From the sequence record NC_027349.1: a DNA stretch of 64,000 nt; one strand, written 5' to 3'. This document shows positions 12 through 5,826 of the stretch, piece by piece. The notes under the pieces were generated by a model. That model ran no database searches. It saw only the letters and a list, made by a program, of their open reading frames with translations, and was not told the origin of the DNA. Numbering within the stretch: the stretch's first letter is position 1; the number at the start of each line of letters is the position of its first letter. Origin of the DNA: Escherichia phage HY01. The translations under genes were made by a program, and so were the position numbers.

Positions 12-2189
12 TTAGGCCGCAAGGGCCTTCATAGTTTTAGCGATTTGGGAAACTTCATCATCACTTAAAGAGTTGCGATAACCGATGAAGTCGGAAACAA
101 TACGGAATTTCTTGGTAAACTCAACGACCATTTTATCACTGTTTTTTGAAGCATTATTTGACAATACATCAAAAAGATTAGTTACTGTCCAGATATCATG
201 ACCGATGGTACCTTTTCCACCGTTGAAATATATACCCTGCAATGAACTAACCATATTACCAAGGCGAGTATATTCTTCAGAAACTTCATCTACACTGAAG
301 TACTTCATCATAAAATCGAGTTCAGGATACTTGATAATTTTATCAATATATCGTTTAGCTGAACTTGAATAACCTACATACTTATCATAATCTACATCAT
401 CAAAAGCATCTACATATAAATCACGCAGAGTTTCAAAAATACATTGGCACTGACCGAGTTCTTTTACCTTTTTCTGTAAAAGCGGACGAATAACATAAAA
501 TTCATTAATGCCAATAAGATTAGCCATACGAATCAAAATATTCATAGATGGATGACAAAGCGATGTAGTACCATCCATAGAGAAAATATCAGAACGATGC
601 ATGTATGCTACATAACCAGTAATTTCATCTGCTTCTGATGTGAGCGTAAATAGTTCCTCTTTTTCCCAGCGCCCGTCTTTAATTTCAAACTTAAATGCAG
701 TAGCAGCTTTAGGACGAGGAGCTGTACTTTTTACTGCCTTTGGAATATAACTTTTAACTAAAGCTTCAATTTCTGACAAATAATGAATGTTAACTTCATC
801 ACTTTCAAACATCGCCATAATATCAGGGAGTAAATCAATCTGCGATTCTACTTCTGGATTAATAAACAGAAGACGCTCGTTGTGATGAATATTTAAAGTG
901 TTATTAAATTCACTATCATCTAACGCATGTGCTAATCCACGAACAATATTAACACGATTTTTAATATCATCAATAACGATATTAATTTTTGTTGTATTAA
1001 TACCAAACAGACGATAACTTGATGCGACGGCTGAAGTTTCATGACTTTGCTTAATGCGTTTCAGTCGAGGGTCAAGATTTACTTCATACACAACCCCTGC
1101 ATTGCATAACTTACTATCAGGTTCAAACATGCTCTGCATCTTTTTATATGACAGATTTTTAGTCGTGAATTTGACTGAATTACTAATCATATAATCTCGA
1201 GCAGAATACCCCATCTTCATCAATTCACGATATGTGTGACGAGGAGATGTAGATTCTTTAAATCGTTTTACATCTTCATTGAATGCCTTCTCACTAAGCT
1301 CTTTAACACGCTCAATAATATTTTTACGAGTACGATCATCTAGTGAAAGAGCCTCACGCGATGGAGCAATATCAAGTGAACCCATTGGAAACTTAATATA
1401 ATTCACTTCATTGCGGATGCTTAGCCAGTTACGGTCTCTAATAACACCATCAATAGGATAAACAATACCACCATAGATAGCATATAATCCACCACGATCT
1501 GGCCAGTATCTTTCTGGATTTACGCCGTAATAATCATCAAAATCCGGAAAATAATCAATTTCGCGGTCAAGACCATTAATGATAGCCAAATCTTTGAATG
1601 GTCGCATGATATAAGAAACTTCATAAGCAAAGTTTCTAAAGTCTTTTTCTTCAACTGGAACTACGATTTCAATACCAGTTTTATCATCTGGACCCATTTC
1701 TTTTACGAATGTAGGTTTAATTTGTGGACCATCGCCATCCATGTAAGCTACATAACCACGAATTTCGCCTTTATGATATGAAGTAATACTAAATGTATCA
1801 GTATAACTAAACGGAGATTTAGAACCTAAACCAAATCCACCAATGAAATCGTTAGATTCAGCCTTAGATGAACTAAAGTATGAATTATACAACCCAGGAG
1901 AATTATCATCACCCTGAATATCAAAATCGCTCATACCCGGACCAAAATCTCGACAAACAAATCGCGGATCTAATCGTCCTGGAACTTGAATGATAAATTT
2001 TTCAGGATTTCCATTGAGAGCATGGGCATCAATCATGTTGGTAATCAATTCACGAACCACTGCGCGAATCTTGTTTGTATACAAATCAGATGACAGAATT
2101 TTAAATACTTTAGGAGACGCTGTGATGCTAAATGCTTTTGATTTAGAACCATTACCAAGAATAGTTTCTTTTTCAGTGGTGATAATCAT
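12..2189 (-). CDS. rIIA: rIIA protein (rapid-lysis / exclusion locus, membrane-associated ATPase-like)
   Basis: 725-aa ORF; size, position at the window start and sequence match T4 rIIA as recalled. Confidence 0.93.
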
Positions 2190-2199
2190 AATTTCCTCA

Positions 2200-2403
2200 T
2201 TAATTCATATTGCGTTTAATAACTTCAGCAACTTCTAGTAATTCATCTTTAGTTGCAGTGTCGGATTGAATTTTATCTCTAATATCCTTAAAGCGGTTTT
2301 TAAACTCTTCGGCTTCTCCCATATCGAAAAAGCGTTGAATGATTCTATATTCTCGATGAACTGCTTTATCAAAAAGTTCTAAATTTACTCTGTATGATTT
2401 CAT
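2200..2403 (-). CDS. rIIA.1: small protein upstream of rIIA
   Basis: 67-aa ORF directly upstream of rIIA, fed by an early promoter at about 2429-2458. Confidence 0.6.
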
Positions 2404-2428
2404 TTCAATATCCTCATTTGCCCAATTA

Positions 2429-2458
2429 ATTATACCACATCCTTGTGGTAAAGTAAAC
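2429..2458 (-). promoter_or_regulatory. early promoter (-35 GTTTAC, -10 TATAAT) for rIIA.1-rIIA
   Basis: minus-strand sense GTTTAC-18 nt-TATAAT with upstream A/T tract. Confidence 0.6.
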
Positions 2459-2990
2459 TACTGGCTCATCCATTCTTTACGAAGGTCAGCGTTATCTCCC
2501 ATGAGCATTTCAAAAAGCTCTTTCCAATTCTCAGGAAGTTTAACAACATCATATACTGGGTTTTGAATCATCTCACGATATTCAGATTTTTCCAAAGAAC
2601 CAAGTCCTTTAATATAACGGATGCTATGTTTAGGTAGAGCATCTTTGGCACTCTCATATTCAGCGACTGTATAAAACCATTCTTGTTTTTTGCCGACCTG
2701 AGCGATGATTACAGGAGTTTTGACAAAACGAATTCGTCCTTGCTCAAACAATTCTGGCCAATTACTAAAAAATCCGAGCAGAGAAGGATAAATAGAACCT
2801 AATCCAATAATCTCTTAATTATGAGGTATTTCAATGGATAGCCCGAAGGCTATCCATCGTGATCTGCGTCTGTCATAATAGCGACATTCGCATAGTTCAT
2901 TGAAGAGGATTTAATAGAACGACGGACATTGTTCTGCGATTTATATTTTTTCATATCAATGCTAGAAGAATCAATTTTTACAAATTTCAT
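2458..2990 (-). CDS. 60: DNA topoisomerase II subunit gp60, decoded as join(2853..2990, 2458..2802) across a 50-nt untranslated gap
   Basis: N-terminal segment MKFVKIDSSSIDMKKYK...MTDADHDG ends at GGA-TAG; translation resumes LGSIYPSLLGFFSNWPELFEQGRIRF... after the landing GGA; 46 codons precede the gap as in T4. Confidence 0.9.
2803..2852 (-). other. 50-nt translational bypass element of gene 60 (take-off GGA, stop TAG, UUCG-loop hairpin, landing GGA)
   Basis: mRNA sense GGA UAG CCUUCGGGCUA...UUAUUGGA UUA; the stop codon sits in the stem of hairpin AUGGAUAGCCUUCGGGCUAUCCAU. Confidence 0.88.
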
Positions 2991-3789
2991 TATACACCTC
3001 GTAGAACTTTTCATCAGGAATCCAGCCGCGTTTAAATTCATTAAATGCTCGGCCGAATAATTTTGAATTCACAGTTATATTATTAACTGATTTCCATTTA
3101 GCAACTCCCGTTCGTTTATAATGATCGGGGTCATATTTCGTGACGTACCATTCATATAAATTTGGTATTAATTTTACAGCCTCTGGATTTGTCGCTGATT
3201 TATTATACCATGGTTTCGCTTTTTCAAGTTCAGCTGCTTTTGCAGTAGCAGCAACAGTATTTCCAATACCAACTAATTTTTCAGCTTTAATGCGTGGATC
3301 ATTAACATGAAGACGAAAAACTTCGCCTTTTTCATTTTTAAAGCATGTCATGCCTTTAATTCCAGGAAGCTTAACACCTTTATTAACACCGCACCATTCC
3401 TTTGGGTTAAATGATCCTTTAATTAATAAGGCGCATTTACCCGATTTAATACTTCTCATTAAAACTTTATCTTTCATAAAGTTTTTTGACCATTCAGATA
3501 CTGCTCTTTGATGGTAAATTCTAGCAATTTCATATAATTTACTAGAACGTAAATATTTTTCAGTGTTTAACATTCTATTCATCGCATATGCCATTTCACG
3601 ATTACGATGAATTTTATATAGTAGAAAATGTGCTAAAAAGTGTTCACGAAAAGTCAGTTTCACCAAATTTTCTTTATCATCAGAACCTCCCATTGATCTT
3701 GGAAGGATATGGTGAATTTCACCCTTAAATTTAGAAACGCGGGTTTTACCCCGCACTATTAAGTCATCATAGATTTTTTCGTAATTCAC
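2971..3789 (-). mobile_element. mobA: HNH-family homing endonuclease ORF between topoisomerase genes 39 and 60
   Basis: 272-aa ORF with HNH-like motif HHILPRSMGGSDDKENLVKLTFREHFLAHF; overlaps the 3' end of gene 39 and the 5' end of gene 60; true start uncertain. Confidence 0.7.
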
Positions 3790-5320
3790 CTACTGTTATC
3801 CATTTACCATTAATCTGTACTTCATCATTTTCATTTACAATAATTGTATCACCATTTAGTTCGAGAGTAAACCACTCACCGTCTTCTTTTTCTTCAAACG
3901 CTTTTTCACCAAGAACCAATCCAGTGATTGCGCAAATATCAAATAGTTCTTTGTTTTTAAGCATATCAGCATATGACATACCCCAACTGTTGAGAACTTT
4001 ACCACGCAATGGATAACCACCGTGAAGTTCTTTATCACGAACATCAATAAGATAGCCGATAGCAGAATCACCCTCAGTCAAGAAAAGAGTAGTATCAGCA
4101 TCTTTACCGCAAAGATTCGCTTTAATATGTTTATGAACCTTAGCTTTAGAAGCCTTTTTAGCTGCTTTAGTTTCTGCTGCTTTTTCTGCCGCCAATTTAC
4201 GAGCCAAGGCAGCTTCAATAATTGGCATTAAAATTGCTTCATTATTTAAAATAGCGCGTGAAATCTTTTTAGCATCAAGCTGAATATGACTACGAATTTC
4301 ACCAAATGGAGAAGTCAAACGCTCTTTAGTTTGAGAATCAAATCGCATGTTTTTCATATCACGAACAAACATAACGATAGTCAAACATTCTTTAACCCGT
4401 GCTTTAGTTACATCAATTTTGAATTTACGTTTGATTTGCGGAATAAGGTCTTCACAAATATCATCCATAACACAGTCAATATGATGGCCACCATTCTTAG
4501 TATGAATGTTATTGACGTATGTTAATTGACGAAAACCATCCGGTGAACGACCAACCGCAATAGAGCAATTTTCCTGTTCTTGAACGATAGCATGCTCATC
4601 ATATTGGCGTGCGTATTTCTTAAAATTACCCTGAACCTTTTTACCATTAAAGGTAAATTGAATATCAGGATAAACTACTGCAAGTGTCTGGAGACGATCT
4701 AGTGTAATGTCAAGATAAACTTGGGACAGCTCATTAGTTTCAAATGACATAAAATCAGGAATGAAAGTAACACGAGTTCCTTTCCATTTTCCAGGAATAG
4801 TTTCCCATGATTTATTTTCCATGCCATTTGAACAACGAACTACAATATTATTTTGACCGTCGCCAGTTTCACCGACAAACATCACAGAAAAAATGTTTGT
4901 CAAACTAGAACCAACACCATTCATACCGCCGGTGACGCGTTCTTTATCATCACCGAAGTTACCACCTGCTTTTGGAATAGTCCACGCAGCAACAGGACCA
5001 GGAATTTCTTCGCCGGTAGGTGTTTTAACCATCGCTTGTGGAATACCGCGACCGTTATCTTCAACTGTTACTTGATTGTTTTTGATAGTAACATTAATTT
5101 TATTTGCGAATTTAAACTTAGTACGAATACCTTCATCTACTGAGTTATCGATAATTTCATCAATAAGCTTAACAAGACCAGGTACATACTGAACACTTTC
5201 CCATTTACCAAACAGAAAGCGCTCATGCATTTCATTAGCAGAAGAACCAATGTACATGCCGCTACGCTTTTTGATATGTTCAATATCGCTCAGAATTTTA
5301 ATTTCATTCTTAATCATCAC
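3767..5320 (-). CDS. 39: DNA topoisomerase II large subunit (GyrB-like ATPase)
   Basis: 517-aa ORF with GHKL ATPase motifs (IDNSVDE, DNGRGIP, GLHGVG-like). Confidence 0.93.
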   Translation of the reverse strand: MMIKNEIKILSDIEHIKKRSGMYIGSSANEMHERFLFGKWESVQYVPGLVKLIDEIIDNSVDEGIRTKFKFANKINVTIKNNQVTVEDNGRGIPQAMVKTPTGEEIPGPVAAWTIPKAGGNFGDDKERVTGGMNGVGSSLTNIFSVMFVGETGDGQNNIVVRCSNGMENKSWETIPGKWKGTRVTFIPDFMSFETNELSQVYLDITLDRLQTLAVVYPDIQFTFNGKKVQGNFKKYARQYDEHAIVQEQENCSIAVGRSPDGFRQLTYVNNIHTKNGGHHIDCVMDDICEDLIPQIKRKFKIDVTKARVKECLTIVMFVRDMKNMRFDSQTKERLTSPFGEIRSHIQLDAKKISRAILNNEAILMPIIEAALARKLAAEKAAETKAAKKASKAKVHKHIKANLCGKDADTTLFLTEGDSAIGYLIDVRDKELHGGYPLRGKVLNSWGMSYADMLKNKELFDICAITGLVLGEKAFEEKEDGEWFTLELNGDTIIVNENDEVQINGKWITVGELRKNL

Positions 5321-5370
5321 TTATCCTCGTTTGGTTTCGGGAATATTATACTCCGGTAATCATAAAGCTA

Positions 5371-5386
5371 AAGGCCCGAAGGCCTT
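5371..5386 (-). terminator. UUCG-tetraloop GC hairpin after 39.1
   Basis: AAGGCC-UUCG-GGCCUU in mRNA sense, followed by U-rich sequence. Confidence 0.55.
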
Positions 5387-5647
5387 TTATTTAAAACGAA
5401 TAGTCGAATCCTTGAAGAATAGTCCAGAACATACGGTTCCTTCTACTTTCTGCCCAGTAGGTCCAATAGCACGAAATCCAGTATGCTGGAAATCATTTTC
5501 AGAGCAACCGAACCAATTATATCCAGTGATTTCAATATTAGTAAAACCACTTGAAGACAAAACTTTGGTTGCATTATCAGCATCAGTACATCCTGCTAAA
5601 GACACTGCTAATACTAATGCCGCGATAGAACGATTAACATATTTCAT
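5387..5647 (-). CDS. 39.1: small lipoprotein-like protein
   Basis: 86 aa with signal peptide and lipobox-like LAGC; UUCG hairpin terminator directly after its stop. Confidence 0.55.
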   Translation of the reverse strand: MKYVNRSIAALVLAVSLAGCTDADNATKVLSSSGFTNIEITGYNWFGCSENDFQHTGFRAIGPTGQKVEGTVCSGLFFKDSTIRFK

Positions 5648-5649
5648 AA

Positions 5650-5826
5650 TTACCCTTTAAGTAAGTCGTAAAATCCACCGTTCACATGCTTAGGAGCGGA
5701 AACTAACCGAATAGCAATCCGATGACAATCAGGACATACATCAGTATCTCTTTCAGAAATTTTCTTGATTTTTTCGTATTCTTTTGCACAGTCTTTGGAT
5801 TGACATTTATAATCATAAAGAGGCAT
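5650..5826 (-). CDS. 39.2: zinc-ribbon protein (FmdB-like CxxC...CxxC)
   Basis: 58-aa ORF MPLYDYKCQSKDCAKEYEKIKKISERDTDVCPDCHR... translated by hand (below the ORF-track cutoff); coordinates approximate. Confidence 0.5.
   Translation of the reverse strand: MPLYDYKCQSKDCAKEYEKIKKISERDTDVCPDCHRIAIRLVSAPKHVNGGFYDLLKG

Follow-up and report, generated by a model that had tools for sequence, protein, structure and literature searches.

What kind of gene separates the two pieces of the topoisomerase II large-subunit gene in Escherichia phage HY01, and what brought it there? In a window of 64,000 nucleotides (nt) of this phage (NC_027349.1), an open reading frame (ORF) of 272 codons lies between genes 39 and 60. 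The ORF is mobA of the known T4-type MobA/gene 60 bypass mobile cassette, clade 1; this system has already been described, and the differences from T4 are allelic only. The explanation that we favour, with a probability of about 85%, is that the ORF is the free-standing HNH homing endonuclease gene of the cassette, that it appears intact and that it is probably active. This reading follows from near-identity to the published T4-group protein, and we infer nicking, homing and self-protection by the window allele from the literature.

The interrupted topoisomerase gene and its insert

A megablast search with positions 2400..5400 returned 532 phage records, nearly all of them from Tequatrovirus. 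PEC04 is 99.8% identical and T4 isolates are 97.6% identical, at T4 coordinates 2400..5400. With rIIA at 12..2189, window coordinates equal those of T4, so that the window starts where the T4 genome conventionally starts. In T4T (HM137666), the coding sequence at 2971..3789 is annotated as 'mobA, homing endonuclease, H-N-H family' with gene 39 (3767..5317) on one side and gene 60 (join 2458..2802, 2853..2990) on the other, and a 'non-coding translational bypass region' is given at 2803..2852. The layout of PEC04 is the same as that of T4T and the window. MobA of the window is identical to MobA of PEC04 at all 272 residues and to that of T4T at 270 of 272 (differences N8D and T169A).

A database search found 132 homologues of MobA, including ten full-length MobA-like proteins of 48-98% identity, one of them from Acinetobacter phage Stupor. 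Many others match only the N-terminal ~100 residues; their C-terminal regions differ and often carry NUMOD3 or NUMOD1. Full-length MobA was detected by tblastn in 71 phage records. Among the matches listed, each full-length MobA lies between topoisomerase pieces (PEC04, T4, Salmonella S16, Acinetobacter Abraxas and Aeromonas 60AhydR15PP), and its position inside the topoisomerase gene is conserved across five phage groups.

The initial annotation had described a 272-amino-acid HNH-motif ORF between genes 39 and 60 that overlaps both, and this was confirmed. The ORF is 819 nt long and has one stop, at its end. It overlaps gene 39 by 23 nt (3767..3789) and gene 60 by 20 nt (2971..2990, with the gene 60 ATG at 2990), out of frame in both cases. 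The upstream ORF in the coding orientation (516/517 amino acids, 3767..5317/5320) carries HATPase_c and DNA_gyraseB domains according to the ORF list and domain search. Downstream of mobA are two short ORFs, the second of which (2458..2751) has TOPRIM_C and GyrB C-terminal domains. The GTG start of mobA is supported by the N-terminus M-N-Y-x-K-I-Y, which is kept among homologues. The T4 gene has the same GUG start and the same 23-bp overlap with gene 39 (PMC2988022).

The same annotation had attributed this arrangement to the splitting of an ancestral topoisomerase gene by a homing endonuclease, and had proposed a comparison with T-even phages having a fused 39/60 gene. T2 and RB14 have one uninterrupted gene of 1818 nt (605 amino acids), annotated '60plus39' in RB14, and the window matches it on both sides of an insert. 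Identity is 95.8% (T2) and 97.4% (RB14) up to nt 1418 of the uninterrupted gene (window 3900), followed by a sharp break at 3900/3899; identity with T2 restarts at window 2793, which is T2 nt 1483. The 1106-nt element thus sits after nt 1418 and replaces 64 nt (nt 1419-1482). The proposed splitting is supported, since foreign DNA interrupts a gene that is whole in T2 and RB14.

Besides the ORF, the composite mobile cassette supplies the gp39 tail, the first 46 codons of gp60 and the 50-nt bypass gap (Table 1). The initial view of an endonuclease insert was right as far as it went; centred on the ORF, it overlooked this wider cassette, made up of the gp39 C-terminal extension (CTE), the gp60 N-terminal extension (NTE) and the bypass gap at 2803..2852. 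The last ~16 codons of the NTE (NYANVAIMTDADHDG) constitute homR, a recoded copy of the deleted segment that is 76% identical to T2 nt 1427-1472, where T2 reads NYHNIAIMTDADHDG. The first 9 nt past the landing site (2802..2794) are also element-derived and show synonymous recoding, TTA GGT TCT versus CTA GGA AGC in T2.

These values were compared with the published MobA element (Manning & Atkins, preprint 10.1101/2022.08.31.505936). It is described there as 1097-1106 nt long, inserted at nt 1399-1419 with a deletion of 55-75 nt, and as carrying an HNH ORF of 269-279 amino acids between the halves of the split topoisomerase II large-subunit gene, a CTE of ~44 amino acids, an NTE of 44-46 amino acids and a homR with 67-81% identity to the deleted segment. 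Clade 1 elements have an extra 9 nt of homR, and phage HY01, related to PEC04 at the species level, is used as an example, with a 64-nt deletion. The window element equals or falls inside the published values in length, insertion point, deletion, CTE, NTE, homR and the 9 recoded nt. At 23 nt, the overlap with gene 39 slightly exceeds the 1-20 nt range of the preprint, but it equals the T4 value in PMC2988022.

Table 1. Features of the MobA cassette and of the flanking topoisomerase gene in the window
Feature	Position	Strand	Basis
Complete MobA mobile element (1106 nt), missing from T2 and RB14	2794..3899	minus	alignment in coding orientation
mobA (272 codons, start codon GTG), free-standing gene of the HNH homing endonuclease	2971..3789	minus	coordinates as annotated mobA
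HNH core of the mobA product, residues 23-54	3723..3628	minus	
gp39 C-terminal extension (CTE), 43 amino acids (FEEKEDGEWF...GELRKNL), in frame	3770..3899, stop 3767..3769	minus	protein comparison with T2
Gene 60 codons 1-46, element-encoded N-terminal extension (NTE), with nascent-peptide bypass signal and homR	2853..2990	minus	
Gene 60 coding gap of 50 nt, bypassed by translating ribosomes	2803..2852	minus	annotated bypass region at same coordinates in T4T
Gene 39, host-derived part (topoisomerase II large subunit, ATPase and transducer domains)	3900..5317	minus	HATPase_c, DNA_gyraseB; colinear with T2/RB14 nt 1-1418
Gene 60 after landing site (TOPRIM C-terminal part of large subunit), host-derived past its first 9 nt	2458..2802	minus	TOPRIM_C; 97.9% identity to T2

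The HNH domain and its relatives

The HNH (beta-beta-alpha-Me) nuclease superfamily is marked by a His acting as general base, an Asn with a structural or metal-positioning role and a His that binds metal, carried on a pair of antiparallel beta strands and the alpha helix after them. The ORF product contains the HNH motif EIHHILPRSMGGSDDKENLVKLTFREHFLAH. Residues H26, H27, I28, N41, V43, H50, H54, L56 and L57 are invariant in an alignment of 46 sequences, and PHROG 655 'homing endonuclease' matches residues 1-265 with E=1.4e-57. A profile search of PDB sequences gave five matches, all of them HNH domains (group II intron maturase 6ME0, Cas8-HNH and McrA, E=0.0014-0.033), with an alignment spanning E-I-H-H-I-L-P...G-G-S-D-D...N-L-V...H. 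AlphaFold2 predicted two beta strands (24-27 and 42-45) and an alpha helix (47-61) at a predicted local distance difference test score (pLDDT) of ~90 in both the N-domain model (mean pLDDT 87.4, predicted template modelling score 0.75) and the full-length model (mean pLDDT 81.8). The initial annotation would have been refuted by the lack of an HNH fold in structure prediction; this was not the outcome, as the local beta-beta-alpha topology and the catalytic residues are present in a confident model.

Residues ~190 to 272 form a helical C-terminal region, which presumably binds DNA. The domain search did not detect NUMOD1 or NUMOD3 in MobA. A sub-threshold Pfam match to Gp6_C-III (baseplate) at residues 60-112, echoed by 9F4A at E=0.19, was taken as a chance likeness of helical segments. 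On the HNH core, NCBIfam gave an IscB match far below threshold and nothing else.

The closest known system is the MobA/gene 60 cassette of T4. Both share the locus, its coordinates, 270 of the 272 MobA residues, the element length and insertion point, the CTE, the NTE and homR, as well as the 50-nt gap with its GGA take-off and landing codons, UAG, UUCG hairpin and GAG mini Shine-Dalgarno sequence (mini-SD). They differ by the two MobA substitutions, by V11I and L18S in gp60 and by two substitutions in the gap. MobE, which is encoded between nrdA and nrdB in T4 and whose gene splits nrdA in Aeh1, and the other T4 Mob-type HNH endonucleases are known free-standing relatives. They share with MobA an N-terminal HNH domain of ~100 amino acids (MNYxKIY...HHILPRSMGG...NLV...REH) at 40-55% identity, as judged from tblastn matches annotated mobE or homing endonuclease. 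Like MobA, they are free-standing and have no promoter, they nick one strand, and they can divide a host gene into two parts whose polypeptides reassemble (PMC2988022; preprint 10.1101/2022.08.31.505936). In contrast, their C-terminal DNA-binding regions (NUMOD1/NUMOD3 in many) and their target genes are different, and they have no bypass cassette. The HNH 'En' domain of the group II intron maturase (6ME0), Cas8-HNH and McrA are the best sequence matches of solved structure, with the core EIHHILPxxxGGSDDxxNLVxxxxxxH, and are also top, non-significant Foldseek matches; their likeness to MobA is limited to ~30 residues, and their domain context and biology are different.

Intactness, spread and alternative explanations

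Several points weigh against an intact and active homing endonuclease. The Pfam HNH match (residues 24-43) scores 20.1 bits, 1.3 below the gathering score of 21.4. Global fold searches gave no HNH nuclease at a significant score: in Foldseek against the PDB, HNH-bearing chains took 14 of the 15 top places, none of them significant (E at least 0.44), presumably because the HNH motif is too small to reach significance in a fold search. The results of Bonocora et al. 2011 (PNAS 108:16351) are used here second-hand, from the preprint and reviews. The other points favour a first alternative, in which the mobA orthologue is open but functionally dead or decaying, a remnant left without homing after fixation of the cassette. 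Such decay is predicted by the homing-endonuclease life cycle and is common for homing endonuclease genes; mobA is reported to be pseudogenised or deleted in KARL-1, Aes012 and the T4 reference (preprint 10.1101/2022.08.31.505936); and the window protein carries the substitutions N8D and T169A relative to T4T MobA.

The state of the ORF itself argues otherwise. It is full length and colinear in all eight cassette-bearing genomes (window, T4T, PEC04, JEP6, HY03, F26, e11/2 and PD112), with all invariant residues kept. One non-synonymous change was counted against four synonymous ones in the comparison with T4T, and none against 5-6 in those with F26 and PD112; the ratio of non-synonymous to synonymous divergence (pN/pS) is ~0.06 versus T4T. 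The initial annotation held that intactness cannot be judged from sequence, a view that we do not share, given the full-length colinear ORF, the invariant catalytic residues and this low ratio.

The old T4 reference record (NC_000866.4/AF158101) annotates mobA as defective, with the ORF broken into '60.1' and a 'defective' mobA, which speaks for decay. This record contains 11 extra bases relative to T4T (ten insertion events, mostly C) at record locus 1551..1768, which corresponds to T4T 3450..3657. The 'defective' label rests on these 11 inserted single bases, which occur in the old reference only and are absent from T4T; we infer that they are errors or strain-specific lesions. Since T4T, the window and six other phages have an uninterrupted 819-nt ORF, the pseudogene annotation of T4 mobA probably reflects the record and not biology.

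Divergence at synonymous sites bears on the same question. Compared with T4T, F26 and PD112, the synonymous divergence (pS) of mobA is 0.025-0.038, versus 0.126-0.184 for host gene 39 and 0.09-0.12 for host gene 60. At these sites mobA is thus ~5-fold less diverged than flanking gene 39. Over the eight cassette-bearing phages, the mean pairwise nucleotide divergence is 0.56% for mobA and 3.3% for gene 39. The cassette is spanned by ~40 of the 532 related records (~7%) in the megablast search, and gene 39 of the window is 97.4% identical to that of cassette-free RB14, versus 96.6% to that of cassette-bearing T4T. The presence of the cassette does not follow the phylogeny of the flanks. Low mobA divergence together with patchy presence fits a recently spreading homing element, as the preprint 10.1101/2022.08.31.505936 likewise concludes. 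As very low synonymous divergence argues for recent spread, and in view of the intact ORF, we consider decay of mobA in the window unlikely.

Within the cassette, the CTE (3767..3899, minus strand) has a pS of 0.15-0.19 versus T4T, F26 and PD112, like host gene 39, next to the ~5-fold less diverged mobA. Two CTE alleles occur, which differ by F/L at one residue and by five synonymous changes; the counts are small. The CTE divergence and the two alleles suggest recombination breakpoints inside the cassette, within the limits of these small counts.

According to a second alternative, the main role for which the nuclease has been co-opted is competition between phages, in which it would damage or exclude co-infecting cassette-free T-even genomes instead of being a plain selfish homing element. 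T4 free-standing endonucleases are known to nick the genomes of competitors and to cause localised marker exclusion (PMC2988022), and the cassette persists across several Tequatrovirus species. However, sequence data do not separate such a role from homing, a cassette present in ~7% of related records does not suggest a strong selective advantage, and the element is possibly mildly deleterious (preprint 10.1101/2022.08.31.505936). We therefore hold competition as the main role to be very improbable. Finally, a chance ORF, or a non-nuclease protein with an HNH-like string, is effectively refuted by the PHROG 655 match and the full-length homologues of 48-98% identity, in line with the 132 homologues, the invariant H-N-H pattern, the PDB sequence matches that are all HNH domains and the position in the topoisomerase gene conserved in five phage groups.

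The bypass allele, homing and neighbouring variation

The cassette supplies its own translational bypass. By published criteria, a bypass cassette has take-off and landing codons that match, a stop or hungry codon behind the take-off site, a stem-loop at take-off that is capped by a stable tetraloop, and a mini-SD placed 5-7 nt ahead of the landing codon (preprint 10.1101/2022.08.31.505936). All these sequence features are found in the window: the take-off GGA (2855..2853) and the landing GGA (2805..2803) are 50 nt apart, UAG follows the take-off codon, GAG lies 6 nt before the landing GGA as a mini-SD, and the take-off hairpin has a 12-bp stem with a UUCG cap (-20.2 kcal/mol, z = -7.1).

In the take-off region of gene 60 (2803..2870, minus strand), two substitutions in the gap (window 2836 and 2833) distinguish the window from T4, which has CUAUCUAUAG where the window has CUAUCCAUUG. 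They turn a G.U pair into G-C and a G/A mismatch into G.U, so that the stem is extended from 10 to 12 bp and becomes continuous. The energy of the take-off stem is -20.2 kcal/mol in the window, -17.0 in F26 and -14.7 in T4. The A-to-U change in the gap also removes the second in-frame UAG. Both changes are common to PEC04 and JEP6, and F26 has the first only. In gp60, the substitutions V11I (codon at 2958..2960) and L18S (2937..2939), both on the minus strand, are common to PEC04, JEP6 and HY03, and L18S falls within the KYKLQNNVRRSIKSSS segment of the nascent peptide that is implicated in bypassing. Overall, the differences of the window allele from T4 in MobA, gp60 and the gap are common to PEC04 and JEP6 and in part to HY03 and F26. 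Nothing in the differences of the bypass allele suggests a new kind of system. The allele might serve as a natural variant for dissecting ribosome hopping if its changes measurably alter bypass efficiency or MobA self-protection, a prospect that we regard as less likely than not.

The published work provides the mechanism. Both MobA and MobE nick a single strand of their respective targets and show high-frequency inheritance in mixed infections, and mobA is promoter-less, its GUG start and its 23-bp overlap with gene 39 suggesting low-level coupled translation (PMC2988022). According to Bonocora et al. 2011, as summarised in the preprint 10.1101/2022.08.31.505936, the split gene, along with the 50-nt insert, is copied into T2 by MobA, the nick falls within the region that corresponds to homR, and nicking is not blocked by homR polymorphisms alone but by the bypass insert, which is located ~20 bases downstream. 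The sequence features that match this mechanism are all present in the window.

On this basis, mobA, having no promoter of its own, would be co-transcribed with gene 39 and weakly translated, starting at a GUG that lies over the stop region of gene 39. When a related phage with an uninterrupted large-subunit gene infects the same cell, MobA would bind that gene and nick one strand in the segment equivalent to homR, and recombinational repair on the cassette-bearing template would copy the whole 1.1-kb element into the recipient. The host phage would stay viable because the element supplies the gp39 C-terminal tail and the gp60 N-terminal extension, so that the split subunit can reassemble. The cassette would be protected from its own nuclease because the 50-nt insert beside the nick site disrupts the MobA target, and gp60 would still be made because ribosomes hop over this insert.

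Variation of a similar kind was observed nearby in other phages. Escherichia phage CJY920 (PQ349265) has an additional ~917 nt (391..1307) inserted at the site equivalent to window 2489/2490, with the gene for a second Mob-type HNH endonuclease, 270 amino acids long (MNYRKIY...HHILPKSMGGSN...; ORF 476..1288, minus strand), located directly after a recoded gene 60 C-terminus that ends in ...MGNDPELRKDWMLG before the stop. Downstream, the previous gene 60 end survives as a remnant (PDLRKEWMSQ, then stop), and identity over the neighbouring 87 nt is only 86%. The insertion with its recoded gene 60 end indicates that the same gene is the target of another free-standing homing endonuclease as well. 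On the upstream side of the topoisomerase gene, RB14 (4600..4971) and T2 (4652..4969) have an extra RB32ORF005c-like ORF between 39.1 and 39.2, which the window (5647..5650), T4T and PEC04 lack, and e11/2 is 27% divergent from the window over 39.1-39.2. This interval just upstream of the topoisomerase gene is another indel-polymorphic spot.

Among selfish homing endonucleases, the one at this locus is a textbook example of the splitting of an essential gene, and it travels with the gene 60 bypass, to our knowledge the only well-studied long-range programmed ribosome bypass. The window copy is a further intact one, identical to the PEC04 copy, and adds nothing conceptually new. Modern genomes are confirmed to carry an intact mobA, unlike the annotation of the old T4 reference, and the window allele of the bypass hairpin and nascent peptide is a natural variant to compare with that of T4.
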